Source: an uncultured virus (IMG/VR IMGVR_UViG_3300038314_001147) (Duplodnaviria; Heunggongvirae; Uroviricota; Caudoviricetes). From it: DNA of 64,000 nt. Position 1 is the stretch's first letter. Every line of letters begins with the position of its first letter. A program made the position numbers and the translations under genes. Below are positions 42,592-62,444 of this stretch, piece by piece. The stretch is from positions 1 through 64,000 of IMG/VR virus record IMGVR_UViG_3300038314_001147, one strand, 5' to 3'. The notes beneath the pieces are model-generated. The model had not been told where the DNA came from. It was given only the letters and a program-made list of their open reading frames with translations, and ran no database searches.

Positions 42592-42723
42592 ATGGGATTT
42601 GCTTTAGCATGGAACCAAGGAATTTTAATAGGGATTAATCATTATAATCCTGATGAAGAACATCCATTTCTTGAATTAAACATTCATCTTACTGTATTTA
42701 GGATTATTATACTGTTTCGTTAG
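42592..42723 (+). CDS. 43-aa hypothetical protein (not in ORF track)
   Basis: MGFALAWNQGILIGINHYNPDEEHPFLELNIHLTVFRIIILFR; A-rich leader; fills the gap to the convergent gene. Confidence 0.55.
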   Translation: MGFALAWNQGILIGINHYNPDEEHPFLELNIHLTVFRIIILFR

Positions 42724-44342: not shown

Positions 44343-44343
44343 A

Positions 44344-44631
44344 TTATGTTTCTAATTTTTTTTCATAATCATCGAGTGCTATATCTAATAAGATTAAATA
44401 ACCTGCTAGATCTTTTATTGTATCTTTAATCGATGGGTCTCTAACTCCTGCAGGGTTATTCTTTATACGCATAAGTTTATCATCTATTCTACTACATAGG
44501 CTATCAATAGGAATTTGTTTTGAAAATATTCCCGCTGGTTTAAGAGCTGAATCTCCGTAGTTTCTATTTTTCTGCAGTAGTAAGTCTCTGATCTCTTCGC
44601 ATTTCTGCTTTAATCTTGAAGGTGTATCCAT
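44344..44631 (-). CDS. DUF1599 / nucleotide-modification-associated domain 1 protein
   Basis: 'KNRNYGDSA', 'RIDDKLMRI', 'DTIKDLAGYLIL'. Confidence 0.8.
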   Translation of the reverse strand: MDTPSRLKQKCEEIRDLLLQKNRNYGDSALKPAGIFSKQIPIDSLCSRIDDKLMRIKNNPAGVRDPSIKDTIKDLAGYLILLDIALDDYEKKLET

Positions 44632-44635
44632 CTTG

Positions 44636-44643
44636 CAAATATA
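44636..44643 (-). promoter_or_regulatory. Bacteroidota primary-sigma promoter -7 element
   Basis: Minus strand reads TATATTTG-CAAG-ATG. Confidence 0.6.
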
Positions 44644-44655
44644 AGAAAATTATAG

Positions 44656-44844
44656 TTATCTTTTATGTTTTTCATTAAATCTTTTTGTTAGCTCTTTTCC
44701 AATGATTTTACTTATAGTGGATTTATTAAAGTTAAATTTCTCACCTATATTATGAATAGTATCTCCAGTTTGATAATAATAATCCATTATTTTCTTAATT
44801 TTATTATCATCTAATTCACTTATATTATTATATCTTCTTTTCAT
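44656..44844 (-). CDS. Small HTH protein
   Basis: 'TIHNIGEKFNFNKSTISKII'. Confidence 0.7.
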   Translation of the reverse strand: MKRRYNNISELDDNKIKKIMDYYYQTGDTIHNIGEKFNFNKSTISKIIGKELTKRFNEKHKR

Positions 44845-44990
44845 GACCTTGGTCCTGTATCTTGTGACAAGGCACCTGTTAACGTACCTCCTTCGTTTCT
44901 ATTAATTTCTTTTATTATTAAATCTCTTAATTCTTTTCTTATGTTTGAATTCTGTATCCACCTGTTTAACATTTCATCTATTTCTTTCAT
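44841..44990 (-). CDS. 49-aa hypothetical protein (not in ORF track)
   Basis: MKEIDEMLNRW...GPRS; ATGA overlaps at both ends. Confidence 0.55.
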   Translation of the reverse strand: MKEIDEMLNRWIQNSNIRKELRDLIIKEINRNEGGTLTGALSQDTGPRS

Positions 44991-45664
44991 TTTATTATTG
45001 TTTTGGCACAATATGCCTGGTTTATAATTTTTACTTCTTTTTTATAATAATTTTGTATTAAGTTAACAAAATCCCAAAATAATTTATAGAATAATGGATG
45101 CAACCATTGTGGTGACATTGTTATATTTAAATGTTCTATATTTTCTAAATCAATTGTGGGATTTTTAGTATTCATTGCAAAATTAAAATTTCTAGGTCTA
45201 CTAGTAATATCTATTTCTTTAAATTCATAAGAGTTTTTATTTGCTATCCAAGTATATTCTTTTATCAATCTATATTTATCTAAGTATAATATCCATGCTG
45301 ATGGAGTAGCCATATTTAAGTATTCTATAGTCCCTATATCTTGGTGAGAATAAAATATATCATGATGATGATCTATATTTATTATATTAAATGGATTTTT
45401 TTCATTTGCTAACACTTCTAATGGGTATAAGATACCATCGTGTGAAATTGTAAAAGAAATTTGTTCAAATTTAAGAAAATTTATTGACTCTTTGATGACA
45501 TTAGAAATATATTTTAAATTTTTTTTAGATATTTTAACATCTCTTTCATTAACGTTGTTAGCCATCCAGCTCATTTCACCTGGTACATAATATACAGTTT
45601 CTGTATTGTATAAATCAATACATGGTGACATAATAAAATCTAAATCTATAGTTAATATATTCAT
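44987..45664 (-). CDS. UPF0489-like (arginase/deacetylase-fold) protein
   Basis: 'ILTIDLDF', 'SHD', 'INIDHHHD', 'SPQW'; start moved to ATG 45664 (MNILTID). Confidence 0.6.
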   Translation of the reverse strand: MNILTIDLDFIMSPCIDLYNTETVYYVPGEMSWMANNVNERDVKISKKNLKYISNVIKESINFLKFEQISFTISHDGILYPLEVLANEKNPFNIINIDHHHDIFYSHQDIGTIEYLNMATPSAWILYLDKYRLIKEYTWIANKNSYEFKEIDITSRPRNFNFAMNTKNPTIDLENIEHLNITMSPQWLHPLFYKLFWDFVNLIQNYYKKEVKIINQAYCAKTIIK

Positions 45665-45687
45665 AATTAAAGTGTTATAGGCGAGGC

Positions 45688-45808
45688 GATAGGACCCCCC
45701 CATAACATGCGTTCTTTAACTCCCGCTGCGTATAAAAACACGGTTCGATTAATCCGTTAGTCGGGTACGCAGCAGGCATGCCTATCCATGTTTATTTCCA
45801 TCCGACTA
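45688..45808 (-). ncRNA. Candidate structured RNA, family unknown
   Basis: GC-rich intergenic island with nested stems GAUAGG/CCUAUC, CAUGC/GCAUG, CCUGCUGCGUA/UACGCAGCGGG, ACGG/CCGU. Confidence 0.5.
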
Positions 45809-45809
45809 T

Positions 45810-46124
45810 TTAATTTAAGCATCTTGATTTTCCACATCTTTGATATTTATTTATATCTAATATCTTTACTATCTTCGATTCAAATTGCTTTCTTTTGTAA
45901 TTTAAGTCTTTACATAATCTAGCTAAGACTAGACCGCAAGATTTAATTCTATCATCACTACCTTTTACAATTACCATGGTATGATGACCATTAGGTTCAT
46001 ATTTTCCATTTCTCATTCTTTTAGCTATAGTTATTTCAGCTAACCAAATAGTATATTCACATATTAAATTACCTCTACTTTCTTCGCTTTCGTGTACTCT
46101 GGACACGTTTGATTCATCGGACAT
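45810..46124 (-). CDS. Hypothetical protein (start uncertain)
   Basis: ORF in operon orientation. Confidence 0.5.
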   Translation of the reverse strand: MSDESNVSRVHESEESRGNLICEYTIWLAEITIAKRMRNGKYEPNGHHTMVIVKGSDDRIKSCGLVLARLCKDLNYKRKQFESKIVKILDINKYQRCGKSRCLN

Positions 46125-46834
46125 AATTTACAGTTTGAATAAGAAGGATTATAACCCCAATCATTTTTCTCATGATAAAGTATTTTATCTAAAGTTCTTC
46201 TTATAGATTCATCTAATTCCGCTTTATCCATATTTGTTATTTCCTTTCTTATAATTTTGTAAGAGGGATTTGGAGCGTAATCAAATACTAAGTAATAAAA
46301 TGGTAGCTGTTCTCCTGTCATTTGTTCATATAAATATGTATACATTACAGCTTGCGTATGATCCATATTATGTGGAAAATGCCAAGACCAATCTCCAAAT
46401 TCTTTATAAATACTACTAGTCAATTTAATGTCAACAATAGCCTTATCTACATCTCCTAATACATCATCATGTAGAGATGCTAGACAATCTAATGTGCCAT
46501 TTAATTCAAGATTATCATCAAACTTATATGTTAATACTGTCTGTGTATCTAATATTACCATATTATGAAGACCTAATGTTTTTTGAAAGTCTCTTACTTG
46601 TTTATCGACTCTTTGATGAGATGCACTTTTAGTTCCGTTTTTTAATAAAGGTAAATTATTAACAGATTGACCATGAGCTCCACTTCCAATTACTTGTGTT
46701 TCAAAGTATAATCCACGGAGCATAGCTATGGAAGGTTTAGAAGCATAATTTTTATCTATGTATACTTCTTTAATATATGTTGGGCAGTAGTCTTGTTTAA
46801 ATAACTTAATTAAGGTTTGTGAAATTTTATACAT
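46064..46834 (-). CDS. PD-(D/E)xK (Cas4/RecB-like) exonuclease
   Basis: 'GTLDCL', 'IVDIKLT', 'QAVMY', C-terminal 'CKLC....C'. Confidence 0.8.
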   Translation of the reverse strand: MYKISQTLIKLFKQDYCPTYIKEVYIDKNYASKPSIAMLRGLYFETQVIGSGAHGQSVNNLPLLKNGTKSASHQRVDKQVRDFQKTLGLHNMVILDTQTVLTYKFDDNLELNGTLDCLASLHDDVLGDVDKAIVDIKLTSSIYKEFGDWSWHFPHNMDHTQAVMYTYLYEQMTGEQLPFYYLVFDYAPNPSYKIIRKEITNMDKAELDESIRRTLDKILYHEKNDWGYNPSYSNCKLCPMNQTCPEYTKAKKVEVI

Positions 46835-47073
46835 TACAGTTCAATGGGCTTACATCCTATAAGTTTACACCATTCATGACATAACATTCCATAACTTTCT
46901 GTTATAGTTATATCTCTTCCGCCTATAAATACTACGGTTTCCTCTTCTGTAAATTTACATATAGCTTCTACTTTGTTTAAATCCAATAGTAGTTCTTCTT
47001 TTTCATCTATTTCTCTACCTATCTTCTGTGCTGTTCTTGGATCTCTGTATACTACCTGTGTTCTTATTATCAT
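46834..47073 (-). CDS. Hypothetical protein
   Basis: 79 aa, coupled to nuclease gene. Confidence 0.6.
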   Translation of the reverse strand: MIIRTQVVYRDPRTAQKIGREIDEKEELLLDLNKVEAICKFTEEETVVFIGGRDITITESYGMLCHEWCKLIGCKPIEL

Positions 47074-48025
47074 AATTGTATATTTTTATTAATAATTCTC
47101 TTGTACCAGTGGATGTGTCTTTAAAGAAATCTGATATATCTTTCCCTTCAAAATCTAATTCACTTAGTTTTATTTTTCTTATGCCATATTCTTTACTTAT
47201 AGCGTCTTCTGCCTCTTGCCCAGTCTTATCTATGTCGTAACATATAGCTATTTCAGTTGACAAAGTTAACAATTTTAAATGTAAATCTTCATAATATACT
47301 GCTTTTTCTGAACTTAAGGCAATTCCTCTGATACCAGTGTTGGAATATAAAGATAATACATCTTTTTGTCCTGCACAAATTATAACAATCTCTTGTTTTT
47401 CTGTTATTTGATTGATACCAAATATATCTGTGCTCTTAGTGTTACATACAAATTTATATTTTTTATTTGCAGTAAGAGGTCTATATAACTTTACACCATC
47501 ATCATCATAAATATATGCAAATATAGGATCAGTACTTGTTGATTGAAATGTAAATCCTCCTATTTTAAACCATTCTATTGCTTTTACTTTATACTCTTCT
47601 AGATATGATTTATGTATTCCAAATTGCATCCAATATAGTAATTCATGCTGTCTGAAATCTCTTGCTAAATATTCAATCTTCTTTCTTTTCTTGATATATA
47701 GTTTAGGGATCTTAATTTTCTTTTCTGGCATTGTAAAATCATCAAAATCTAATACATTAAAGTCATTAGCGACAATTTCTAATGCAGTTTTAAAGTCACA
47801 TCCAAATAATTGCATGACGAATTCAAAACAATCTCCTCTATCCCCCGCAAAATCCTTGTAATAAACGTTACCAGTTTCATTTCTGTAAATATTAAAAGAA
47901 GGATTTTTATCAACCCTTAGGGGAGACTTTATAGACTTTCCAAATCTGATATCTTCGTCAATATATCGATTGAAAATATCTATAGGTCTCACCCTGTTAA
48001 GGATTTTCTTTTTAAGATCATTCAT
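47015..48025 (-). CDS. dnaG: DNA primase (DnaG-like, TOPRIM)
   Basis: 'SPLRVDKNPSF', 'YKDF..GDCFEFV', 'KLYRP', 'GQKDVL', 'CYDID', 'KDISD'. Confidence 0.85.
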   Translation of the reverse strand: MNDLKKKILNRVRPIDIFNRYIDEDIRFGKSIKSPLRVDKNPSFNIYRNETGNVYYKDFAGDRGDCFEFVMQLFGCDFKTALEIVANDFNVLDFDDFTMPEKKIKIPKLYIKKRKKIEYLARDFRQHELLYWMQFGIHKSYLEEYKVKAIEWFKIGGFTFQSTSTDPIFAYIYDDDGVKLYRPLTANKKYKFVCNTKSTDIFGINQITEKQEIVIICAGQKDVLSLYSNTGIRGIALSSEKAVYYEDLHLKLLTLSTEIAICYDIDKTGQEAEDAISKEYGIRKIKLSELDFEGKDISDFFKDTSTGTRELLIKIYNYDNKNTGSIQRSKNSTEDR

Positions 48026-48464
48026 TAAGCTTAATGATTAACTCAGTTAATTCACCACTTATAGAGCATCTTTTTCCATATACAGTGAATTGTCCTGTTC
48101 TGTCTAATTCTCCGTGAACTTCTAATGCAATATCTATTTCCCATAGATCATGAGCCATAGCAATTCCTATTTTTTCAATAAAATCACTACTATCACCCAT
48201 ATCTAATTCATCACTAAATAAGTTTAACTGATTTTCTTTATGATTAATCTTATCATAAGTAGATTCATTAAAGTTATGTACATCATCGGATAGAAACGAA
48301 TCATCATTCAGTCGTTTTGGTATTTGAACTTTACTGTCTTCTCCTTTTACGGATTTTTCGAAGTTTTCAGCATCTTCGAGGTCTTTTTTAGAAAATTTTC
48401 CTAGTTTGTTTACGTTTTTTTTATTCATCTTCTGTGTTATTTTGTACAAATTGCATTCCATCAC
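48018..48464 (-). CDS. Hypothetical protein
   Basis: ORF in operon; true start probably internal (MNKKN). Confidence 0.55.
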   Translation of the reverse strand: MMECNLYKITQKMNKKNVNKLGKFSKKDLEDAENFEKSVKGEDSKVQIPKRLNDDSFLSDDVHNFNESTYDKINHKENQLNLFSDELDMGDSSDFIEKIGIAMAHDLWEIDIALEVHGELDRTGQFTVYGKRCSISGELTELIIKLNE

Positions 48465-49902
48465 TTATATATGCAGGATGGCTAAAATTATCATCGACAT
48501 AGCTATATATATAATCATCAAGTAATTTTGATTCCCTTTCATTTAATTGTTTTGGAGTTGCTAAATTCCCATTATAATAACAGCTTACATTTTTCATTCT
48601 AATAGATTTCTTTAAAGCATCACAAGCGGATATACTTTGACTTACACTCAATATAAATGAATGATCGTTATATGTATCCCATGAGTCTTCACAATCAGTT
48701 ATGATTAATGCGGGTAATCCTGCGTCCTTTGCATGTCTCATAACCTTATCTATGTCAGTTCCTCCAGCCACACGAATCATGTTAATGTCATTAGGTTTAA
48801 CGGGAGTAATTCTATTATTAAATACATAAGCTGTTTTTACCATATTCATTGAAATAAATTTTCTTGCAAGAGCTTTTGCTAATTGCAGACATGAAGCAGC
48901 ACCTTGATTACCTGATCGGTGATGGTGGTGATAACCACCACCATTCCAAACTGAAGCATCTACAGTATTACTATCCATTGATCCGCTAATATCAATATAT
49001 AAGTTGAAATAGAAATTCTTATAAATTGAATCAGCCATTGCGTTCATTATCAATGCAACATGTGAAAAGTCTTCATAGCTTGTAATGTCTAAAATTTCTT
49101 CAGCTTCAAATATACTCTCTTCCTTTTTCACTTGCTTACCTACGCTACTATGTTTAAATCTTCTAATAGATTGTTTAATAAAAGATTCTAATTGCTTTAA
49201 AGGAAATCCTGCGTCTAATTTACCTGAATCAATATATCTATCAATGTCTTCTGGTGAATAATCTCCAGCACTATTTTGACCACCTTCCATCCCCTCAACT
49301 TGTTGTAATTTTCCAATTTGTTCTTGAGCTTCAGTGGTACCTTCCTTAAGTGCAGACTTAATACTTTTTAAGAATTCTTGATATTCTTCACTATTTAAAA
49401 CATTTTGATCAGGCTTAGGAGCTAGTTTAGCTATATGAATTGGTTTAAGTCCTTTAGCTTTTCTTTTATTATCTAAATCCTTAGCTCTTTGCAGTTGTTT
49501 CATCCACTTAACCATTCTCTTGATTTCATTATTTCTTTTATTGTTTAATGATTTCCATCCTCTAGTTTTCTTTAACGTTGCGGATAAACTTCTAAGAATA
49601 TGAAGTGTTGCTAAATAACTATAGCCTAATCTACCTTCAGTTATTGTTTTCAATAAGTAATTTCCTGAGCCTGCTAATATTTTTTGCCACCACATCATAG
49701 ATGGAGGTATAACATATCTTAACTCTACATTGAAGTAATATTTAAATATGTCTCTAATCATAAAATCAGGTACGGATTTACCTATATCTTTGCGACTTTG
49801 TAAGTTCGCTACTAATTTGGACTCTATATACCAAGGTAGATCTGGTTGAGTAATATCTACCTTAGTATATATGCCCGGTACTACATTCGTTGAATTACGC
49901 AT
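48421..49902 (-). CDS. VWA (MIDAS) domain protein, ViaA-like MoxR partner
   Basis: DxSxS 'DISGSM', 'GGTDI', 'ITD'. Confidence 0.8.
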   Translation of the reverse strand: MRNSTNVVPGIYTKVDITQPDLPWYIESKLVANLQSRKDIGKSVPDFMIRDIFKYYFNVELRYVIPPSMMWWQKILAGSGNYLLKTITEGRLGYSYLATLHILRSLSATLKKTRGWKSLNNKRNNEIKRMVKWMKQLQRAKDLDNKRKAKGLKPIHIAKLAPKPDQNVLNSEEYQEFLKSIKSALKEGTTEAQEQIGKLQQVEGMEGGQNSAGDYSPEDIDRYIDSGKLDAGFPLKQLESFIKQSIRRFKHSSVGKQVKKEESIFEAEEILDITSYEDFSHVALIMNAMADSIYKNFYFNLYIDISGSMDSNTVDASVWNGGGYHHHHRSGNQGAASCLQLAKALARKFISMNMVKTAYVFNNRITPVKPNDINMIRVAGGTDIDKVMRHAKDAGLPALIITDCEDSWDTYNDHSFILSVSQSISACDALKKSIRMKNVSCYYNGNLATPKQLNERESKLLDDYIYSYVDDNFSHPAYISDGMQFVQNNTEDE

Positions 49903-51101
49903 TAAAAGTCGAGGTTTGTATTTTCTTCTGACTCGTCAAGTCGCTTTTTGTATTCATCTGAATGAGGAGTTATTGCAGGATCTTCTCCACAATCAAGATT
50001 CTTTATTGTCTCAATAGCTTCATTTCTTTCATCTTCTTCCTTTCTTATTTCCTCATTAGCTTCTTTAATAGATAGAAGTGCTTTACCAATAGTTTCATTT
50101 TGCATAATTATTTTTAAGAAATGAGATGTGGTCTCTTTAGTTTCATCATCGACTTCATTAGACATTTGAACAGCTGCTTCTTTTGCTTCTAATTCTTTAA
50201 CGCTCTCTAATAAAACTTCAGGATCTGTATCTTCATCCATGCACTCTAAATCCTTGTAAAGAGAATTAAATTCTAATACCGTTGGATGTTCTAATGAATT
50301 AGATACTTCAGTTATACAGTCTGGACATACCATAGTGGCAGCTTTCATAATTGCTTGAGCATCAGGGCATTTGAACACAAGTTTAATTCCTTTAACTAAT
50401 TTTGGAATATGAGCTAATGTTCTATCTGATACATTTTCATAAATAATTTCTACAAATTTATTTAATAATCCTTCGTTAATTTTACAGTTAGCGAAATCTT
50501 GTATCTGAGGAACATTAATTTTAAGAAGCGACTTTCCTTTTTGGTCGTAAAGTCCTTTCCACATGTCATTTATTTTATCTGCTCCAATTCTTTCTACTTT
50601 GTGTACAGCTACAAATCTATCCCAAAATGGTGAATCTTTTTCATCCTCTGGAATTTCATTACAGCTGGCTGCAAATAACTTCCAATGACATTTTTTAATT
50701 TCACCTCCATAGAATAGAGCTTTTTCCCTCATAACTGATAACAAAGTATTTCTTATCCCTGAGGATCCTTTATCTACTTCATTAATAAGAATATACTCTG
50801 CATCTGCAATTGGTGCATCGATTACATATTCTTTGTCTTCTAGTAGCTTCTTCATATCTACTCTTCCTGATATTTGAGAAGTTCTTGTACCTTCGTCTGT
50901 TTCGATAATAAATGATTTTGCTCTAACTCGCACTCTATCGTGATCAAACATAGCGGATGCATAATCTAAAAGAGCCTGGGTTTTGCCTACTCCAGGTTCT
51001 CCTAGTAATAAGATTGGCATTTTAATTGCTTCTGCAACTGCCAACATTCTGAACAATTCGTCCTTTGCTAAGAGATTTGTTTTAATGGTTCTTAAAATCA
51101 T
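49902..51101 (-). CDS. MoxR-family AAA+ ATPase (RavA-like)
   Basis: 'GEPGVGKT', 'LINEVDK', 'RNTLLSVMRE', 'ASCNEIP', 'FWDRF'. Confidence 0.8.
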   Translation of the reverse strand: MILRTIKTNLLAKDELFRMLAVAEAIKMPILLLGEPGVGKTQALLDYASAMFDHDRVRVRAKSFIIETDEGTRTSQISGRVDMKKLLEDKEYVIDAPIADAEYILINEVDKGSSGIRNTLLSVMREKALFYGGEIKKCHWKLFAASCNEIPEDEKDSPFWDRFVAVHKVERIGADKINDMWKGLYDQKGKSLLKINVPQIQDFANCKINEGLLNKFVEIIYENVSDRTLAHIPKLVKGIKLVFKCPDAQAIMKAATMVCPDCITEVSNSLEHPTVLEFNSLYKDLECMDEDTDPEVLLESVKELEAKEAAVQMSNEVDDETKETTSHFLKIIMQNETIGKALLSIKEANEEIRKEEDERNEAIETIKNLDCGEDPAITPHSDEYKKRLDESEENTNLDF

Positions 51102-51103
51102 AT

Positions 51104-51745
51104 CTAGAACGGAAGATCGTCTTCTTCGTCTTCTGAATCAGTTGGACTATTATCATGATCTTCAGCTTTCTTTTCTGTCACGACTGATCCATTTAATTCT
51201 TCAAACTTTAATAATTTATCTTTCTCATCATCGGTTAATTCACGGATGAGTTTATCTGGTTTAACAGAAAAACTATCATCATCAATAGCTCCGCAGTACC
51301 AGAATTCAGGCTGATCAACAACTTTCATTCTATCTATTCCATCCTTGTCTGTAAAAGAGTATAGAGATTGTCTATGTCTAACAGCAACTTGCAGATCCTG
51401 CCCAAGAAATTGTTTAACTTGGTTTATGACATCATTAATATCATTGCATTCTTGTAAGGTATATTTATATCCTTTAAATAAGAATTCAACGAATCTTTCT
51501 TTAGCAATTTCGCTTCCATTGCCATCCATTTTAAATGCAGCACTTACTGGTCTGTATTCATCTGATAAAGTCATTTGAATAATAACCATAGGCATTCCAT
51601 CTTTTTTGGAATCCTTATGCTCTACATTAGATAATGTTAATACCTGCTTTCCAGCCGGTACAATTGGGAGTTTTGCTTTATAGCCTCCCCTTTCTTGGAC
51701 GTTTTTTACCGTCTTTTTGATCAAATCTGAATTAAATAATCCCAT
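51104..51745 (-). CDS. Putative single-stranded DNA-binding protein
   Basis: Beta-rich core with acidic tail ending 'EEDDLPF'; near AAA_24 gene. Confidence 0.65.
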   Translation of the reverse strand: MGLFNSDLIKKTVKNVQERGGYKAKLPIVPAGKQVLTLSNVEHKDSKKDGMPMVIIQMTLSDEYRPVSAAFKMDGNGSEIAKERFVEFLFKGYKYTLQECNDINDVINQVKQFLGQDLQVAVRHRQSLYSFTDKDGIDRMKVVDQPEFWYCGAIDDDSFSVKPDKLIRELTDDEKDKLLKFEELNGSVVTEKKAEDHDNSPTDSEDEEDDLPF

Positions 51746-51779
51746 AATTTTTTCATTTTTTAATAATTAATAATTGTGT

Positions 51780-52166
51780 TTAAAATCCATCATATACTTT
51801 CTTCTCGAAAGTAAATTTTTCAATAGGTATATATATTTTCTTTTCAATACCTTGTGTTTTAAAGTGAAGAAACGATCCGTGTTCTAGAGCGTCTTTAGCA
51901 GTGATTCTATAAATTCCCTTTTCTGTGCGAATATTTATTGATCCGCTTAGTGCTTTAGCTAATGTATATGGTATAGACCATGCATTTGCTTTTCTATAGA
52001 TATGAATTTCTTCTTCGTCTTTAAAGTAACTTATTTTTCCATTAGAATGGTTAAGAATTTGTCCTATTCGTCTGGGATATTTATCCCTTTTTAGGTTCAA
52101 AAATACATTATTTTCTTTAATTGTCAAAGAGTTTCCATCATTATCTTTTGGAAATTTACGCATCAT
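51780..52166 (-). CDS. Hypothetical protein
   Basis: 128 aa in operon. Confidence 0.6.
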   Translation of the reverse strand: MMRKFPKDNDGNSLTIKENNVFLNLKRDKYPRRIGQILNHSNGKISYFKDEEEIHIYRKANAWSIPYTLAKALSGSINIRTEKGIYRITAKDALEHGSFLHFKTQGIEKKIYIPIEKFTFEKKVYDGF

Positions 52167-52809
52167 AATCCTCTATACTATTAATGACTATTTCCATATC
52201 ATTATCTATAACTATATCTTCAAACATTCCCATAGGAGATTTAGCTGGAACTACTCCATCTGTCTGAGTTCTAAACTTATACTGCACTTCTGTAGGTGAT
52301 AAGACTTTTGAAAATGAATGTAATACAATGTCAAATTCTTTTTCTATAACTCCTGACCATTCCTTTCCTTTCACCTTTAATGATACTACTCTATCTCCTC
52401 CATCGGGTCCTTCTAATATTTCTTCATGCCCAATGACTATGCAGTGTTTACCTGAATCATTTATTTTCTTTACTGAATCAAAGAATTTATATAGTGTTTC
52501 ATTATAATATGACCATACATCCCATCCTGACTTAATTATTCTAGCTTCTGCTAATAATGTATCAGTGAATGCAGAGAAACTATCTATAACAACTATTTTA
52601 CAGTTAGTTCCTTTTGCCATTTTATCTAAAGTATTCAACGTTTCTTTTACTGTTGTTGGTCTCACTTCCATTTTAAATAGATTAGCTGCTTTAAATGGTA
52701 ATTTTTTTCTTTCTGTATTTAGAATAGCTACATGTGCTGGATCTAAATTTCTGAGGCTTGTTGATTTGCCTCTACCTGATTGTCCTAAGACTAATATTGT
52801 CCTTGCCAT
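52156..52809 (-). CDS. AAA_24 / Sak4-like ATPase
   Basis: 'GQSGRGKSTS', 'VVIDS', 'IEKEFDIVL', 'AKSPMGMF'. Confidence 0.85.
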   Translation of the reverse strand: MARTILVLGQSGRGKSTSLRNLDPAHVAILNTERKKLPFKAANLFKMEVRPTTVKETLNTLDKMAKGTNCKIVVIDSFSAFTDTLLAEARIIKSGWDVWSYYNETLYKFFDSVKKINDSGKHCIVIGHEEILEGPDGGDRVVSLKVKGKEWSGVIEKEFDIVLHSFSKVLSPTEVQYKFRTQTDGVVPAKSPMGMFEDIVIDNDMEIVINSIEDYDA

Positions 52810-55503: not shown

Positions 55504-55845
55504 TTAGTGAGAAAGTAACTCGATTTCTAAATTAATTCCTAACCTGGCTGTACAAAATCTTTTGCTTCCTAACATCAGGCGATGTCCTCCGGTTATCTCC
55601 CATCCAATTATCTTAGCTAAGTTATTGAATATCAATACTCTATAGTCTTCTTTTAATGTTCCTAAGCTCCATTCTTGATTGTTATATAGTGCATAAACTT
55701 GAAGTCCTTTTAAGAATATTAATTTAACATTTTGTCGATTTTGAGACATTAATTTTAACATTTGCTGCCTGCCTCCGGTCTCATTTGATATACTGACACC
55801 TCTTATTTTGGTGTATATTTTATTTTCCTGTTCAACGTATGGCAT
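55504..55845 (-). CDS. HIRAN-like domain protein
   Basis: 'YTKIRGVS..RQ', 'LGTL', 'ITGG..LGINLEI'; start set at MPYVEQ after A-rich leader. Confidence 0.55.
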   Translation of the reverse strand: MPYVEQENKIYTKIRGVSISNETGGRQQMLKLMSQNRQNVKLIFLKGLQVYALYNNQEWSLGTLKEDYRVLIFNNLAKIIGWEITGGHRLMLGSKRFCTARLGINLEIELLSH

Positions 55846-55867
55846 AATTTTTATTTTAATTTTAAAG

Positions 55868-55952
55868 GGTAGAAGAAAGAGGTCCTTTTGCATGCATGGC
55901 TCATCGAGTCTGCACCATGATTGCCCTAGTATTCGGATCCTCCCTATCTACC
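55868..55952 (-). ncRNA. Candidate long irregular RNA hairpin
   Basis: GGUAGA/UCUACC, GGGAGG/CCUCUU, UCC/GGA, GCA/UGC, CAUGG/CCAUG nested. Confidence 0.45.
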
Positions 55953-56063
55953 TTGTCCTCTATATTTCTTTTTGTATGCATTTTGAGATCTAGATGCATT
56001 TTTGGAATGTTTACCTGGTCTTTTCTTTCTTTTATTCCATCTAAATGTGGCTACGTTTTTCAT
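55944..56063 (-). CDS. 39-aa basic microprotein ending YRGQGR (not in ORF track)
   Basis: MKNVATFRWNKRKKRPGKHSKNASRSQNAYKKKYRGQGR; ATGA overlap with upstream gene. Confidence 0.7.
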   Translation of the reverse strand: MKNVATFRWNKRKKRPGKHSKNASRSQNAYKKKYRGQGR

Positions 56064-56356
56064 TTAATTTGTCTATTATCACATACTAAAGCATCGCCTA
56101 CTATAGGGTCATCAGCTCCATATTTATACATGATAGTTGCATGAGCATTTGTCATCATCCATGACATCTCATTTAATTTTCCCTCTTCATCTATAACCAT
56201 AGTTCTGTCATCATGAGTCTTTACTAATTCTATCATTTTACAATTTAGTAATTTATATAACTCATTTAGTGTAAAGTTCTTGCCATTTCTAGGCTTAACT
56301 GTTTCTGTTGTGCCATTTACTTTTATTAATTCGGCAGGTTCTGGTTTTTTTCCCAT
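56060..56356 (-). CDS. DUF3846-like protein
   Basis: 'FTLNELYKLL', 'MVIDEEGKL', 'NAHAT', 'IVGDALV'. Confidence 0.7.
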   Translation of the reverse strand: MGKKPEPAELIKVNGTTETVKPRNGKNFTLNELYKLLNCKMIELVKTHDDRTMVIDEEGKLNEMSWMMTNAHATIMYKYGADDPIVGDALVCDNRQIK

Positions 56357-56703
56357 GTTGTTTGATTTAGTTTATAAAGTTCCCAATCTTCTTCTTTTAT
56401 TCTTTGACTAATATCTCTTCTATCAAATGTTAATAGATCTCCCCATTCTTTATCTAAGAATACTGGATCTACTCTTAATTTTCCTTGGTATAAATCTCCT
56501 TCGGTTCTTGTAATTTCTATCCACATATGTTCTTTAACTACTTCATCTACTACTTTGTTCCATTCAGGAGTTACATCTATGCCTACTTTTACCATATCTC
56601 CTACTTTGATGACAGTTTCTTTGTTAGCTTCTTGCCATAACTTTGTTCTTTCGTCACCACAGCATTGACAAATGAACTCTATATTATCATTTGGATCATT
56701 CAT
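56326..56703 (-). CDS. DUF2314-like hypothetical protein
   Basis: 'EHMWIEI', 'YQGKLRVDP'. Confidence 0.5.
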   Translation of the reverse strand: MNDPNDNIEFICQCCGDERTKLWQEANKETVIKVGDMVKVGIDVTPEWNKVVDEVVKEHMWIEITRTEGDLYQGKLRVDPVFLDKEWGDLLTFDRRDISQRIKEEDWELYKLNQTTWEKNQNLPN

Positions 56704-56827
56704 ATTTTAAAAAATTTCCCCGTCCCTCACTCATTTCAGCTTCAAAATGAAAAGCTGCCTTAGGTGCTTGAATTCTTCGCTCGTCTTCGACTTCGCTCTG
56801 AATGTCAACCACGCCCAGGCTGCTCTA

Positions 56828-57091
56828 TCATTTTTCGCTTTCAATTTCGTTCGGACCCAGGATGACGGGTTTCTTTGGTCCTTTCATCTTGATATTGAAT
56901 CCGTTGGACTTAAAATCAACCACGCATTTATAGTTCTTTATACTATACTTTCTTGCATAATAATGAATGCATTTCTTTAACCCATACTCATTCATCTCTC
57001 TTCCAGGTATATTCAGCTTGACTGACATAGTTCCAGAAGTATATGTTGCTATATAGTTTTTATCTTCGAAGTTATTTTTTTCTTTTTGCAT
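56828..57091 (-). CDS. Hypothetical protein
   Basis: 87 aa in operon. Confidence 0.5.
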   Translation of the reverse strand: MQKEKNNFEDKNYIATYTSGTMSVKLNIPGREMNEYGLKKCIHYYARKYSIKNYKCVVDFKSNGFNIKMKGPKKPVILGPNEIESEK

Positions 57092-57644
57092 CTCTCTTTA
57101 TATTTTTAGCGATCGTTTTCTTCAATTCTCTTCTTTGTTTTCTATTGACTGCTGTCATAATTGGCTTCGCATATAATTGAGTATTTTTATCATCATGCAT
57201 AAAATCTATTTCTCTTGCATATTTATTAGATATTTTATCAAAGCCTTTTTCTCCACCAAAATAGTTTACTATTACCCATTTTCTATTTTCTCTTATAGTT
57301 ACTGTAGCCATAGTTAACCCATTTCTATTAGTGTTTACAAATGTTTCGAAGTTTGTAAGATCTGATTTTATCAATGGACCCATATGATATCCATTCTTTT
57401 CAGTAATTAATGAGTATCTAAATGTTCCTTGTCCTTGATCTACTACTTCATTAACTCTTTTACCTTCTATATCTAGATTTCTTTGAGAATATCCACATCT
57501 CATACAGAATTCAAATAATTCTTCGTTATCTCTTTCATCATGAATTAGTCCCTCTTTCATCTTACACTTAGGACATTTTAGATATGTTACGTTTTTCCTT
57601 ATTACTTTATCTTCTACGACTTTACTTTTTTTATTCTCTGGCAT
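57072..57644 (-). CDS. Zn-ribbon hypothetical protein
   Basis: 'CPKC'...'CMRCG'. Confidence 0.6.
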   Translation of the reverse strand: MPENKKSKVVEDKVIRKNVTYLKCPKCKMKEGLIHDERDNEELFEFCMRCGYSQRNLDIEGKRVNEVVDQGQGTFRYSLITEKNGYHMGPLIKSDLTNFETFVNTNRNGLTMATVTIRENRKWVIVNYFGGEKGFDKISNKYAREIDFMHDDKNTQLYAKPIMTAVNRKQRRELKKTIAKNIKRDAKRKK

Positions 57645-58290
57645 TTTCTTTTTTATTTTTACAATTAAACAATTTACCTATAAACCTTCCTTTGAAACTA
57701 TAATCTTCTTCATTTGTATATTCAGTTGATAATGAATCAATTTTATTTAACCATCGTTTCTCATCATCATTAACTATTTCATAAACATTATGTATTATTC
57801 TATCTTCCGATTCACAACACATTTGTAGTATTTCTAACCTATGACTTGGTGGTAATTTAGATGGTCTTATATATTCTTTCTTTTCATGATCCATCATTTT
57901 TTCTGAAGGCACATGCGATAGAGTCTTTGATCTTGCTAATTCTTTAAACAATTTATCATCTGGATTATTAAGAGCCATATATGCTTCAGTAGCAAAGAAC
58001 ATTGCTGAGGGTTTCCCCTTCTCTATAGCATTCATTATGATTTGTTCAGCCACATCTTTACCTACATCATCTGTAAAGCATTCTGCAATTGGTAGTGGCA
58101 TTATAGCATAATGATCATGTTTATCAAAATTTGGTGGCATTAAAAACACGCATGTTACTGGCATTGAGTCCATGTTAAATTCTTCTAACTTTTTAAACCC
58201 CTCTATTGTGCTGGTTATCATGTCTTTATAAAATGTATCAAACACTTTATTAAAGTCATCCTTCTTTTTAAAATTTCTTTTATTCTCCAT
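57631..58290 (-). CDS. Hypothetical protein
   Basis: 219 aa, A-rich leader. Confidence 0.65.
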   Translation of the reverse strand: MENKRNFKKKDDFNKVFDTFYKDMITSTIEGFKKLEEFNMDSMPVTCVFLMPPNFDKHDHYAIMPLPIAECFTDDVGKDVAEQIIMNAIEKGKPSAMFFATEAYMALNNPDDKLFKELARSKTLSHVPSEKMMDHEKKEYIRPSKLPPSHRLEILQMCCESEDRIIHNVYEIVNDDEKRWLNKIDSLSTEYTNEEDYSFKGRFIGKLFNCKNKKENARE

Positions 58291-58350
58291 ATTATTATTT
58301 TACTATTAACTATTTCAATTTCGTGACTGCCTCCATTCCTTTGCCTTCTT

Positions 58351-58385
58351 AAAAATCCATACCGTGAGACACGGTATGAATTTTT
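58351..58385 (-). terminator. Intrinsic terminator-like hairpin (possibly bidirectional)
   Basis: CATACCGTG-3 nt-CACGGTATG perfect 9-bp stem flanked by A5/T5. Confidence 0.6.
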
Positions 58386-58487
58386 CATCAGTCATCAGTC
58401 ATTTCGGTGGACTTGGGGAGTCACTCATTTTCATCCTTCGGAATATAAAAACAGAAAGAACATAATATCATCATAGTTTTAAATCTA

Positions 58488-58676
58488 TTACTTTATATTC
58501 TTTCTGTTTTTGAGTATGCCTGAGTTCTTTAAAGTCTCCTTAGAGACCACAAGTCTTGGTCGTGCCTTGTGCCCAGGGTCAATAAATGAGCGTTTTAATT
58601 CACCCACTGTAGTTCGTCTTACTTGTTTAGATTCTTTAAACTCTTTAATGAAGTTGTCAATTAATTTTCTTTCCAT
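58488..58676 (-). CDS. Hypothetical protein (62 aa, MERKL start)
   Basis: ATG-started part of the 58488..58793 ORF. Confidence 0.5.
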   Translation of the reverse strand: MERKLIDNFIKEFKESKQVRRTTVGELKRSFIDPGHKARPRLVVSKETLKNSGILKNRKNIK

Positions 58677-58812
58677 TTTGAATAATTTGATAGTAGTTAA
58701 ATTCTCGTGCTCTATCTTCGGAGCTGGCGGTGTCTTTTGGAATAACTTTAAGCAATGTAATTTTCTTGTCTGTCTCCAAACTTTGTACAACAATAAATTT
58801 AAATCGTCTCAT
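58657..58812 (-). CDS. 51-aa hypothetical protein (not in ORF track)
   Basis: MRRFKFIVVQSLETDKK...; overlaps both neighbours. Confidence 0.4.
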   Translation of the reverse strand: MRRFKFIVVQSLETDKKITLLKVIPKDTASSEDRAREFNYYQIIQNGKKIN

Positions 58813-59002
58813 CTTCTAAAAACTTTTGTATTTCTTCTAATTGTTCTGTATTACATACCTCTTCATCTAGTCCATTCTCTAGATATTCTTTGTGTCTTCT
58901 ATCTTCTAACTCATAGTCTTCTACTGGTTCTTTATTCTTCTTCTTTAGTCCCAGTATGATTCTTTCTAATGCTTCTTTAAACTGTTGATTAGTTAATCTC
59001 AT
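58799..59002 (-). CDS. Hypothetical protein
   Basis: 67 aa, A-rich leader. Confidence 0.6.
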   Translation of the reverse strand: MRLTNQQFKEALERIILGLKKKNKEPVEDYELEDRRHKEYLENGLDEEVCNTEQLEEIQKFLEDETI

Positions 59003-59023
59003 AATTCTATTTTTAAAAATAAA

Positions 59024-59384
59024 GAGGACAACAAAGGAAGGCTAGAATTTAAGAAAACTAACCTCCTTTGCCGAGTCTAAACGGAGATTCCTCACTAAAA
59101 ACAAGTTATGTATTACGATTACGACTGTTTAGACATTTTTATTTAAAGAGAGAGAATAAGACATTTATAGCTTTACAGCGTATTTTTATTCATCACTTAA
59201 GATATTAAAAATTCAATGTCTTATCATCACTCTTATAATGAGGATCAAGCACTTAGAGGTGTTTGTGCTGACCATGACATTACCTAATGTTTGACCAGCA
59301 CACTAAATGCCTGATCCTTTAAAAAGCTGATCTCAATTGTATTGTTTCTTTCCTATACGCTGTCGCAATACCTGACTCAACTTT
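59024..59384 (-). ncRNA. Array of four long irregular RNA hairpins
   Basis: Stems at 59024-59093, 59146-59234, 59241-59318, 59323-59384; most mismatches in three of them become G-U on the minus strand. Confidence 0.6.
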
Positions 59385-59412
59385 GGTTCTTTAACACCAG
59401 ATTACTACTATA

Positions 59413-59772
59413 TTACCTCTTTCCATGATTCTTTAGGTTAGTTAGTTGATCTGGTGATAGTTCAAACTTTGCATGATATAGTACTGTTGGATCAGTTGTA
59501 ATATCTTCAATTACATCAATACCATATTTATCTGTAATATCTTTAAGTATATCAGTTGTATCCACTAATTCTTTATCATTCTGTTCTACACTTACATGTG
59601 TAATTCCATCTTTCTTCTTCTCATGAACACATACTACACCTGTTGGTAATTCTATTCTTTTCTGTTTCTTAGATGCTGCTGATATTATCATTTCTTTTGC
59701 AATAAAATAAGCTAGTGATAATGTGCCTGCGGTTACAAATAAAGCTACGATTACTATTATGTACTTTTCCAT
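59413..59772 (-). CDS. Membrane-anchored hypothetical protein
   Basis: N-terminal hydrophobic helix. Confidence 0.65.
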   Translation of the reverse strand: MEKYIIVIVALFVTAGTLSLAYFIAKEMIISAASKKQKRIELPTGVVCVHEKKKDGITHVSVEQNDKELVDTTDILKDITDKYGIDVIEDITTDPTVLYHAKFELSPDQLTNLKNHGKR

Positions 59773-59773
59773 G

Positions 59774-59947
59774 TTAAAATTCTTTTGATTTATTAATAAT
59801 TACACTCTTGTTATCTTCTAATTCCTTAAGTCTTTTAGTCATAGTCCCCAATATTTCTTGAATCAGTATTAGAGACTTAGCTATTCCTTTCATGCTTTCA
59901 GCAATTGCTTCAACATGTTGATATTGTTCTTTCTCGTATCTATTCAT
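59774..59947 (-). CDS. Small coiled-coil protein
   Basis: MNRYEKEQ start, ATGA-coupled to upstream micro-ORF. Confidence 0.55.
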   Translation of the reverse strand: MNRYEKEQYQHVEAIAESMKGIAKSLILIQEILGTMTKRLKELEDNKSVIINKSKEF

Positions 59948-60018
59948 GAGTTGTATTCTTTTAAGCATTTATAGATGTATATCATCCATTCATTGTATCC
60001 TTCTCTTGTATATCTCAT
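59944..60018 (-). CDS. 24-aa micro-ORF
   Basis: MRYTREGYNEWMIYIYKCLKEYNS; ATGA overlaps at both ends. Confidence 0.45.
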   Translation of the reverse strand: MRYTREGYNEWMIYIYKCLKEYNS

Positions 60019-60143
60019 CTATAACTCATTGAGCTCTTAAACTTCTTCTTACCATCACATCCTTTGTAATAGTTACTGCTTGCACATGAGCCTAATAATA
60101 GTCCCATTGCTAATAAGATTGTTAAAATTCTTAATTTCTTCAT
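60015..60143 (-). CDS. 42-aa lipoprotein (not in ORF track)
   Basis: MKKLRILTILLAMGLLLGS-C lipobox. Confidence 0.7.
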   Translation of the reverse strand: MKKLRILTILLAMGLLLGSCASSNYYKGCDGKKKFKSSMSYR

Positions 60144-60232
60144 TATTTTTCTTTTTCATAAGATGAAGGTGACAACACCCATGCGAGTGCTGCCACCGTT
60201 AATAGTTTAATTATCACTACTTCTGTAATCAT
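60143..60232 (-). CDS. 29-aa hydrophobic micro-ORF
   Basis: MITEVVIIKLLTVAALAWVLSPSSYEKEK; TAATG coupling to the lipoprotein. Confidence 0.45.
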   Translation of the reverse strand: MITEVVIIKLLTVAALAWVLSPSSYEKEK

Positions 60233-61172
60233 GTGTAATGTTTGGGTCTGCTGTAATTCTACCAATCGAGATGGTAGATAGAGCACGTTCGCTCCATCTA
60301 TACACATCACGATCAGTTCTGAATATGTAACCACCCACATCTATCACACCTTTTTCAACACAGTCGTTGACACTGAACCAATAACTCTTATTAGTCCAGT
60401 TCTCAACAATGTGCGGTGTTTGAGCAGGTATAAAACTTTGTGCAAGTAAGAAATGTTCATTACCCATACTATCTTTTACTACGTCCATAATCACAACAAC
60501 ATGTCCAGGATATCCACCAATTGCTAGTAGATCACCAGGTTGAATTTCAGTTAACTCTATTTTCATTAAGTCATTGTGTACAATACTATAGCTATTAGCA
60601 TAATTATACATCTTTTCTAACTGCTTGTTAGTTGGCAATGCATCTTTATACTTATATACTTCCTTGTTTGAATGAACTGTAGCTAATTTGCCTCTGTTTA
60701 GTTGTGCATTTATATGCATTCTCATTGCAAAATCAGCACATTCTTGCCATCTTAATACTTCCATGTCTAAGACAAATGGAGCATCTTTGAGGTATGAACC
60801 ATAAGCATCAAATACTTCACGCTGTTGATAGTCATTACCATCAGCATGAAACCATCCTAATCCAAATGATTTAAAGTAATTACCATAATCATCTGTTGTT
60901 TTGGATAGATATCCATCCTCTAAGCCAATATCAGCTATTCTCTTTACTACCTTTGGATGATTAACTACATGATCAACTATCATTACATCACCAATATCAC
61001 CCACTAAATAGTGCTTCTCAGGCTCTTGAACTGTTGTATCATTACATCCTGCGGATGCTGTTAACATCCCAATCATGATCATAAATACTAATACACAAGC
61101 AACAACACTGCCACCTATGCATTGCATTAGATCCCTAACGGTTAAACCGTACTTACCTAACAATTTCTTCAT
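60207..61172 (-). CDS. DUF4846-like membrane/lipoprotein (papain/NlpC-P60-like Cys-His)
   Basis: 'QECAD', 'YANSYS', 'IQPGD', 'GGYPGHVV', 'LAQSFIPAQ'; hydrophobic N-terminus ending 'SAGC'. Confidence 0.7.
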   Translation of the reverse strand: MKKLLGKYGLTVRDLMQCIGGSVVACVLVFMIMIGMLTASAGCNDTTVQEPEKHYLVGDIGDVMIVDHVVNHPKVVKRIADIGLEDGYLSKTTDDYGNYFKSFGLGWFHADGNDYQQREVFDAYGSYLKDAPFVLDMEVLRWQECADFAMRMHINAQLNRGKLATVHSNKEVYKYKDALPTNKQLEKMYNYANSYSIVHNDLMKIELTEIQPGDLLAIGGYPGHVVVIMDVVKDSMGNEHFLLAQSFIPAQTPHIVENWTNKSYWFSVNDCVEKGVIDVGGYIFRTDRDVYRWSERALSTISIGRITADPNITHDYRSSDN

Positions 61173-61211
61173 TCTTTTGTTATTTTTAAATTAACACTCG
61201 TTGCAAAATTC

Positions 61212-61310
61212 TCTATATATAAATATATATATATATACTATATATAATACATAACATATAACATAGGGTTATAATATAGTATGGTATTATAATAGATAGA
61301 TATATATAAC
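61212..61310. repeat. TA-rich low-complexity tract
   Basis: (TA)n runs and ACATA(T)A repeats. Confidence 0.7.
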
Positions 61311-61409
61311 TGTTGTTACATCAATAAATAGTGTATAAGCATAAGGTTGCACAATAACAACCTCACGCTATAACACCATCCTAATAGGTCTTAATCTCTA
61401 CTTTTAAAG

Positions 61410-61444
61410 AAATAAAAATGAGGGTGCTATCATTTCACACCCTC
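61410..61444 (-). terminator. Intrinsic terminator after ORF 61451..61783
   Basis: GAGGGTGT-loop-GCACCCTC followed by ATTTTTATTT. Confidence 0.65.
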
Positions 61445-61450
61445 TTTACT

Positions 61451-61783
61451 CTAATGCTGCACCTTACTCACCTCACCATTAACTATCTCCACCTCTTGTC
61501 CATCATACGAATACATGTCATCTTCGAAGGATAAGATATCCTTTAGCTGATGTGCATAGCACCATTTGGTTGTAGCTTTTCCTAATTCACCATTATCATC
61601 TAATGTTGTAATCATGAATGTAGCTGTACCAACTGACTTATCCGCCTTCAACGTCCCGAATCTTAAGTTCTCTAAAATTCCACGAGCGTTGAACTCATGC
61701 CAAGCTGTTGAGAAGTCGAGCATTCTACCTTCACCGGCATCAAGCTTTTGCTTGCTTATTCGGCTGTTGTTTGTTCCTGCCAT
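61451..61783 (-). CDS. Hypothetical protein, first gene of the minus-strand block
   Basis: 110 aa with own terminator. Confidence 0.65.
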   Translation of the reverse strand: MAGTNNSRISKQKLDAGEGRMLDFSTAWHEFNARGILENLRFGTLKADKSVGTATFMITTLDDNGELGKATTKWCYAHQLKDILSFEDDMYSYDGQEVEIVNGEVSKVQH

Positions 61784-61885: not shown

Positions 61886-61893
61886 TATCTTTG
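61886..61893 (+). promoter_or_regulatory. Bacteroidota primary-sigma promoter -7 element
   Basis: TATCTTTG-CCAA-ATG at the divergent strand switch. Confidence 0.65.
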
Positions 61894-62101: not shown

Positions 62102-62444
62102 TAAGAATAGTAAGCGATGGACGGGTAAAATACTCATTCATTCAAAGACAACAATGAGATATATTAAAGAAAGTAAAGAATTTTATGTAAAATATAAAAA
62201 TAAATTCATATCTTTGCTCAATGAAAGCAACCAACAGAAGCCCTATAGGGTGTCTTTTAAGTTCGTTAGAGGGTCTAAACACAAGTTTGACTATGTGAAC
62301 CCCTTACAGACTGTTCAAGACCTTATGGTGAAGAATGGTTGGTTGGATGATGATAACTGTGAAGAATTGATTCCAGTGTTTGAAGTTTACGAGTATAACA
62401 AAGAAAACCCAGGAGTATATATAAAAATATTAAAAGATGAGTAA
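62067..62444 (+). CDS. RusA-like Holliday junction resolvase
   Basis: 'IPGNVPSSKN', 'FDYVN..QTVQDLM..G.LDDDN'. Confidence 0.75.
   Translation: MRIFIPGNVPSSKNSKRWTGKILIHSKTTMRYIKESKEFYVKYKNKFISLLNESNQQKPYRVSFKFVRGSKHKFDYVNPLQTVQDLMVKNGWLDDDNCEELIPVFEVYEYNKENPGVYIKILKDE

Follow-up and report, generated by a model that had tools for sequence, protein, structure and literature searches.

The 410-nt gap between the stop of a 119-aa gene (59413) and the ATG of a 67-aa gene (59002) carries a structure that is real, selected-looking and modular. The best explanation for it is a hypervariable untranslated part of an early polycistronic transcript, built of independent stem-loops, and cis-acting processing and stabilising of that transcript is the best reading of what these stems do, to which we give somewhat less than an even chance. 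The position of the gap, its fold, the independence of its modules and the difference of a whole module in one sibling contig were directly observed. Coordinates refer to the window, the whole stretch of DNA analysed (64,000 bases), which comprises bases 1-64000 of a single record of 82,832 bases.

The first 55 bases of this record recur at 82733, so that the genome appears circular and complete, and the completeness estimate for the 82.8 kb record was 99%. The capsid protein displayed a match of about 24% to those of crAss-like phages (30 records), and a Crassvirus muzzle protein is encoded in the genome. Marine metagenomes were the best holders, with five runs from two studies containing at least half of the words of the sequence, one of these runs being possibly its own source. 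A metagenome scan for the gap gave at least one locus, on the TARA contig L014, which agreed with the phage at 4337/4338 bases and was identical across the whole gap. Among the 21 runs listed as holders of the sequence none was an RNA data set, which is evidence neither for nor against expression. The gap (59003-59412) is located at the head of the minus-strand early/replication arm, flanked by a co-oriented run of genes; from 61783, this minus-strand run consists of small genes without name followed by DnaB, Sak4-like, primase and exonuclease genes. Of the genes scanned in the replication arm (42720-52809), none was recognised as a DNA polymerase; a 540-aa and a 493-aa gene there are nameless. 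In phage phi14:2, the corresponding module belongs to the early class and is transcribed by the virion polymerase (bioRxiv 10.1101/2020.03.07.982082). Two genes of the present phage are relevant to the mechanism considered below:

9715-30087, plus strand: 6790-aa protein with SF1 helicase and PD-(D/E)XK domains and a candidate virion-RNAP motif
52156-52809, replication arm: Sak4-like gene

The candidate catalytic motif lies at residue 4403 of the 6790-aa protein, with a spacing like that of phi14:2. Alignment with phi14:2 gp66 did not cover the motif, other searches with the protein gave no matches, and since whole-protein similarity to gp66 was negligible despite the similar spacing, we only infer the virion polymerase. 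A-rich start regions are linked with Bacteroidota genes, and from these regions and the taxon we infer a Bacteroidota host. On the plus strand, at the head of the late arm, two -7 promoter-like sites with similar contexts were observed (61886-61893 and 62209-62216); they follow the Bacteroidota promoter type. This -7 pattern was not enriched (91 matches vs. 87.7 expected) and had no matches in the gap.

The first-pass annotation had described a gap of roughly 410 nt without a sizeable ORF, and this was borne out: the longest minus-strand ORF in the 410 nt has 20 codons, the plus strand contains one 46-codon ORF starting with TTG, and no small peptide (ORFs up to 20 codons) was supported. Folding was compared with shuffled sequences on each strand, as that annotation had proposed, and an excess was obtained on both, stronger on the minus strand (-113.8 kcal/mol, z -7.74) than on the plus strand (-89.9 kcal/mol, z -4.01); on neither strand did any of 100 shuffles fold as well. 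When the genome was divided into 410-nt tiles phased on the gap itself, the gap ranked first among 200 sense-strand tiles (z -7.3; median -0.7). Modules paired internally, with at most about 1.3 bp expected between modules. The fold excess of the minus strand and its self-contained modules uphold the claim that the structure on this strand is real. The modules and the two flanking genes are as follows:

59413..59772, minus strand: upstream gene, 119 aa, hydrophobic N-terminus, no family
59323..59384, minus strand: H1, 62-nt hairpin of 8+4+6 bp with a 21-nt loop; weak
59241..59318, minus strand: H2, 78-nt hairpin, 16-bp stem, 7-nt 3' bulge and 11-bp stem
59146..59234, minus strand: H3, 89-nt module, 5+2+11-bp closing stem and AU-rich branched interior
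59075..59134, minus strand: H4, 8-bp closing stem and weakly folded 44-nt interior with a 6-nt tandem repeat
59029..59073, minus strand: H5, 45-nt hairpin of 10+6 bp, three of them G-U
58799..59002, minus strand: downstream gene of 67 aa without family, acidic in its C-terminal half and with an A/T-rich start region

Module bounds were set after looking at the folds, and each module was scored against 200 shuffles. The five modules fill 334 of the 356 nt of 59384-59029, the linkers between them being of 4, 6, 11 and 1 nt. H2 (z -7.4), H3 (z -4.7) and H5 (z -5.7) were significant singly, with 0/200 shuffles as good for each, whereas H1 (z -2.0; 6/200) and H4 (z -0.9; 32/200) were not. The tandem array of the first-pass annotation was therefore recovered, with five modules in place of the four hairpins reported; the helices that it quoted are present on the minus strand (16 bp, 7-nt bulge and 11 bp in H2; 10+6 bp in H5), and its range of 62-89 nt for the stems does not hold for the quoted H5, the five lengths being 62, 78, 89, 60 and 45 nt. 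H1 starts 28 nt past the stop of the 119-aa gene and has an A-tract on its 5' side and a U-run at its 3' end. A 5-codon mini-ORF (ATG 59136, with an A-rich leader) enters the 5' arm of H4, and H5 is followed by a pyrimidine-rich tail. H2 contains 27 near-coaxial bp with a one-sided bulge, and its apex, a 1x2 loop followed by a 5-bp stem with a tetraloop, brings the total to 32 bp; its four mismatches are all G-U, with no A-C, and Lfoldz, run on both strands, placed it first among the non-redundant local folds of the genome (z -7.58).

Four bases of the 7-nt bulge of H2 are complementary to its apical tetraloop, a feature noticed after the fact, the chance of a random 4-mer matching a 7-nt bulge being 2.5%. 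Loop and bulge are too distant to pair within one molecule, and an intermolecular kiss is possible; through this complementarity H2 could oligomerise head-to-tail.

Symmetric mismatches were counted on folds built from Watson-Crick pairs only. Read on the minus strand, the five stems of the gap presented seven G-U, one A-C and four other mismatches. The first-pass annotation held that mismatches resolve as G-U only on the minus strand; the bias was reproduced, and its exclusivity was not, given the one A-C and four other mismatches. The 7:1 ratio gave p=0.035 for an expectation of 50:50, 0.07 for one based on composition and 0.13 relative to the genome control (33:20 G-U to A-C in 160 windows), and the 12 early-arm elements pooled reached 12:1 (p=0.019 vs. 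the genome control). The G-T bias identifies the minus strand as the one that folds; alone, it fits RNA and single-stranded DNA alike, and with DNA parameters four of the five gap stems also folded better on the minus strand.

Two further claims, that the hairpins are neither ordinary terminators nor CRISPR, both stood. The gap has no canonical terminator: none of the four sites of the terminator scan fell inside it, and only H1 ends in a U-run. The hairpins have no motif or direct repeat in common and, lacking a repeat, are not CRISPR-like; no repeat family was found in the gap among the matches listed or by k-mer comparison, and Rfam CRISPR-repeat families gave 0 matches in 55.0-62.5 kb.

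Natural variation was followed over 55700-61200 in four runs (X5, X7, X9 and X12), the 13 runs with a small share being represented by X9 and X12 only. X5 and X9 yielded near-identical fragments and X12 short unrelated pieces only, whereas X7 gave a sibling, one contig of 6095 nt with 161 substitutions in 3817 aligned bases (about 96% identity). The sibling evidence consists of this one contig at a depth of 2.4, and the pair of sequences does not give the direction of change. A separate protein record (P0006) is longer by two residues at the place of a six-base insertion in X7, which argues for a real sibling lineage. The sibling skips 59140-59237 (98 nt; joint from 59139 to 59238), a stretch that includes H3 entire and ends in a linker on each side; of 313 placements of a deletion of this length, 7 would have both ends outside stems, in a count that took the modules as slightly wider. 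At 59028|59029, where H5 has its last base, the sibling contains 82 extra bases, about 5% of positions lying as near a stem end as this joint. Outside the gap, it skips 55858-56066 (209 nt), where a 39-aa gene and its hairpin are gone together, and 36 nt, in frame, inside the 119-aa gene; the latter gene varies in length among relatives, as seen in this skip and in a 134-aa homolog. The absence of exactly H3, the extra piece and the joint absence of gene and hairpin indicated that hairpins turn over as modules. Palindromes are prone to deletion, and the exact loss of H3 is for that reason no proof of function. H4 plus H5 (59029-59139) differed by one substitution in 111 nt vs. 4.6 expected (p=0.058), apart from a 1-nt gap at 59106 in the H4 loop, and H1, H2 and the gene end (59238-59514), a stretch without joints, by nine substitutions and four gaps in 277 nt vs. 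11.4 substitutions expected. As to the cassette-like character attributed to the array, the loss of a whole module and the extra piece at a module edge are in its favour; for the proposed decoys or sponges, no target, mimic or homolog was found.

Stems similar to those of the gap occur after other early gene blocks, at 61.4, 60.2, 58.5, 56.8 and 55.9 kb. The companion elements considered were:

61328..61444, minus strand: terminator-shaped hairpin past the first early gene (z -4.1), followed by a G-U-rich 9+13-bp hairpin, the 61.35 kb element (z -5.2)
60168..60197, minus strand: 13-bp terminator-like hairpin after the DUF4846 gene (z -6.4)
58447..58511, minus strand: AU-rich stem of 19 bp that overlaps the following gene block at its end (z -5.5)
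58326..58425, minus strand: stem-closed element with a 16-bp inner hairpin, preceding the 219-aa gene (z -3.0)
56754..56825, minus strand: long bulged G+C-rich hairpin between two genes (z -3.1; -5.4 by Lfoldz)
55858..56066, minus strand: unit of a 39-aa basic gene and the 55.9 kb hairpin, flanked on each side by a short A/T-rich repeat

Elements at 45.7, 55.9 and 61.35 kb had been grouped with the gap as one system. Folding was strong for the one at 61.35 kb (z -5.2), moderate at 55.9 kb (-1.7; -3.7 by Lfoldz) and weak at 45.7 kb (-1.7); the grouping itself found no support, no motif being shared with the gap. Comparison of 12 intergenic pieces revealed no common motif beyond isolated 9-15-mers, and no repeated promoter cassette is therefore evident in this phage. 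Of the nine tiles with the best folding, five fall in 58.2-61.5 kb, including one within the DUF4846 gene. As these strong tiles include a coding gene, folding is a property of the transcript head, and the extra folding over 58.2-61.5 kb points partly to a transcript-wide cause. In a density control, 57.5-60 kb contained five folds with z<-4 per 2.5 kb, a number equalled by two late-region bins, which speaks against a unique hotspot. Some other features of this head were recorded. The 3' part of the 321-aa DUF4846 gene (60232-60433, minus strand) holds two long strong hairpins (z -6.0 and -5.5), another hairpin is found near the 5' end of this gene (61076-61133), and between the gene and the 61.35 kb hairpin there is an AT-only, TA-repeat-rich stretch (61215-61310), a possible melting region or origin. 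In the apical part of the 56754-56825 hairpin (minus strand), CGAAG occurs three times.

Rfam 15 gave 0 matches in the window at gathering score, and at E<=10 there were five chance matches in 55.0-62.5 kb, all far below gathering; ARAGORN detected no tRNA or tmRNA in the window, and known ribozymes, riboswitches and phage ncRNA motifs of Rfam were likewise absent from it. GenBank phages contained no homolog of the gap, or short chance pieces only, and scans of IMG/VR proteins with the 219-aa, 119-aa, DnaB and 110-aa queries retrieved no relative carrying it; the proteins flanking the gap have very few relatives. A genome scan of GTDB with the 219-aa protein retrieved no such relative either. 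The arm pattern of H2 was found in 0 viral contigs and in 32 places in genomes, about the chance estimate and with unrelated interiors, and the three matches each to the arm patterns of H5 and H3 were all unrelated on inspection. A search of the phage itself for antisense targets gave nothing beyond scattered 14-mers that contain one mismatch. No paper on hairpin arrays in crAss-like early regions was found in the literature searched, most subscription journals lying outside it. A capsid scan recovered 10 loci, and RusA, sought in five of these 10 records, was matched in two.

One long relative record (G001, 63 kb) has different early genes; neither it nor phi14:2 has a sequence match to the gap. 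The opener of the early arm (61451-61783, minus strand, here; L015:11442-11744, plus strand, in G001) is in both phages a gene of 100-110 aa with a terminator-shaped hairpin directly 3'. The two opener proteins gave no tblastn match to each other, and the 110-aa opener family, which is not named in Pfam, includes a few distant members. G001 also carries a tRNA-like element at L015:12230-12335 (acceptor-like stem, D-like arm, T-arm and extra arm; z -2.6), negative by ARAGORN and at Rfam gathering score, and two long imperfect hairpins with TAAC...GTTA bounds after small genes (L015:19442-19503 and 19813-19903). The latter resemble Bacteroidota cassette ends; the strict attC pattern had no match to either.

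According to the preferred reading, transcription of the early arm on the minus strand would include the gap and would probably depend, as in phi14:2, on a virion RNA polymerase that is injected; host RNase III would cut the long bulged helices, above all H2, and the stems at the new ends would protect the upstream and downstream gene blocks, as at T7-type early sites, with short stable hairpin RNAs released as by-products. The gain and loss of modules and gene-plus-hairpin units would result from recombination at the short A/T-rich linkers, with the Sak4-like annealing protein as a candidate for this step. The typical E. coli RNase III substrate has two helical turns, and bulges restrict cleavage to one strand, leaving protective 3' hairpins (PMC1540722). 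The duplex of H2 and its one-sided bulge fit the substrate description in PMC1540722, and its shape may be called RNase III-substrate-like. Only H2 clearly attains the two-turn duplex length, H1 and H3 are borderline (18 bp, interrupted), and H4 and H5 are shorter. An RNase III domain is present in the Bacteroides control genome and absent from the phage. A literature search on the specificity of Bacteroidota RNase III turned up nothing, and the host here is assigned by taxon only. The tandem gene-less layout is the main difficulty for processing and the main support for small RNAs as its rival: one processing site suffices, so that five stems without genes between them exceed the needs of punctuation. 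Also against processing, the sibling lost gene and hairpin at 55.9 kb jointly, leaving no orphan stem.

The modules may instead be cargo, small-RNA cassettes without genes that are cut out of the early transcript and act in trans as protein sponges, decoys for RNA-sensing defences or antisense regulators, with a turnover like that of accessory anti-defence genes; we regard this, the main rival, as rather unlikely. It accommodates a gap without sizeable ORF and with linkers of merely 1-11 nt, gene-less pieces that differ as units in the sibling, an H2 that keeps 32 bp with mismatches only of the G-U type, and the single substitution in the 111 nt of H4 and H5. A precedent exists in the abundant stable early intergenic transcripts of phi14:2 (bioRxiv 10.1101/2020.03.07.982082), although one of these regions holds an ordinary tmRNA. 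Against this reading, no target, mimic or homolog emerged from Rfam, GenBank phages or the arm-pattern scans (0, 3, 3 and 32 matches, unrelated), the modules have no common binding motif, and H1, H2 and the gene end are not clearly conserved. That they are gene-less small RNAs, mutually unrelated, cut from one transcript and gained and lost like accessory anti-defence genes is, in this full form, slightly more doubtful still. Partial terminators or an attenuator that steps down read-through, with the 5-codon ORF entering H4 as a leader, seem improbable. The A-tract before H1 and the U-run after it, the pyrimidine-rich tail of H5 and the terminator-shaped hairpins elsewhere in the arm speak for this reading, as does the A-rich start region of the mini-ORF, like that of real genes. 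H2 and H3 have no U-tracts, however, and with 0/4 scan sites in the gap termination or attenuation fits H1 only; the 82 extra bases of the sibling part H5 from its pyrimidine tail and, inter-module pairing being negligible, no alternative fold was seen.

At the DNA level, single-stranded hairpins might serve as attC-like recombination sites, as virion-polymerase promoters or in replication, a proposal that we consider very improbable. The module-wise gain and loss resembles cassette exchange, and G-T wobble is one-stranded in DNA too, as reflected in the DNA-parameter folds mentioned above. No tyrosine recombinase was detected, however (PF00589 in 0/1 genome vs. 14/14 controls); no module is bounded by attC cores, and the sole strict attC match in 55.5-62 kb lies mostly within the upstream gene. 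If a promoter hairpin formed on the template strand, the bias should be towards the plus strand, contrary to what was seen, and there is no common promoter motif. Least probable of all, and hardly to be expected, are neutral leftovers, inverted duplications or decayed gene ends now functionless. The non-significant H1 and H4, an H3 that is dispensable in the sibling and the fact that no distant conservation was found agree with such an origin; it leaves H2 unexplained and is contradicted by the first rank of the gap among 200 tiles, by the four mismatches of H2, all G-U, and by the 12:1 ratio of the early arm.

T7 RNase III sites stand singly between genes, and phage decoy RNAs such as pseudo-ToxI repeats and RNA anti-CRISPRs imitate a repeat or an antitoxin of the host and can be recognised by their sequence. 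The gap resembles T7 R1.1-type early sites, which lie between early cistrons as long helices, imperfect and interrupted by a bulge or internal loop, have no repeat among them and are cut by a host enzyme; the same is proposed here, where cleavage is predicted only. It departs from them in its five abutting stems with no gene between, in the variation of these units among strains and in a host of a different phylum. With decoy RNAs it shares the idea of a phage non-coding RNA directed against defence, whereas no such repeat or mimicry was found here. PeSLs, the promoter-early stem-loop cassettes of the T4-type phages RB49/phi1, are stem-loops of a hypervariable early region by which close relatives differ in whole modules (PMC2839356), and the same modular difference was observed here, as three joints at module edges in one sibling contig. 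PeSLs have a repeated promoter and terminator and recombine with each other (PMC2839356), whereas the stems of the gap share no sequence or promoter. By analogy, the likeliest model for its mode of action is given by the early RNase III sites of T7, and its variation is like that of PeSL regions. Judged from its sequence, it would be placed among neither PeSLs, CRISPR, attC sites nor terminators by the tests applied, and it has no Rfam family.

The nearest counterparts by position are the phi14:2 regions g004-g005 and g005-g006, likewise of a marine crAss-like phage, gene-free, near the head of the early arm and in the sense of the early genes (bioRxiv 10.1101/2020.03.07.982082). They have no sequence similarity to the gap, and that study shows them to be abundant RNAs, whereas an RNA from the gap is predicted only. 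The g005-g006 region contains a tmRNA by ARAGORN (NC_021806.1, L016, 4031-4500), which Rfam placed just below gathering (E 7.6e-16, 46 bits vs. 47) and which is absent among the annotated features shown; the window of the present genome has no tmRNA. The early head of phi14:2 is not unusually hairpin-dense, in contrast with this gap. In phi14:2, the early promoters have no common motif and the abundant early non-coding RNAs have no assigned function (bioRxiv 10.1101/2020.03.07.982082).

These results bear on the early transcripts of crAss-like phages and the way in which they are started, cut and stabilised, and the gap offers for this purpose short, sharply bounded modules together with a natural variant without one of them. 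If the modules are processing stems, they would extend the T7 pattern, modestly, to phages of the Crassvirales-like kind; if they are functional small RNAs, they would form a fast-turning RNA layer in the accessory content of phages, missed by protein and Rfam annotation.
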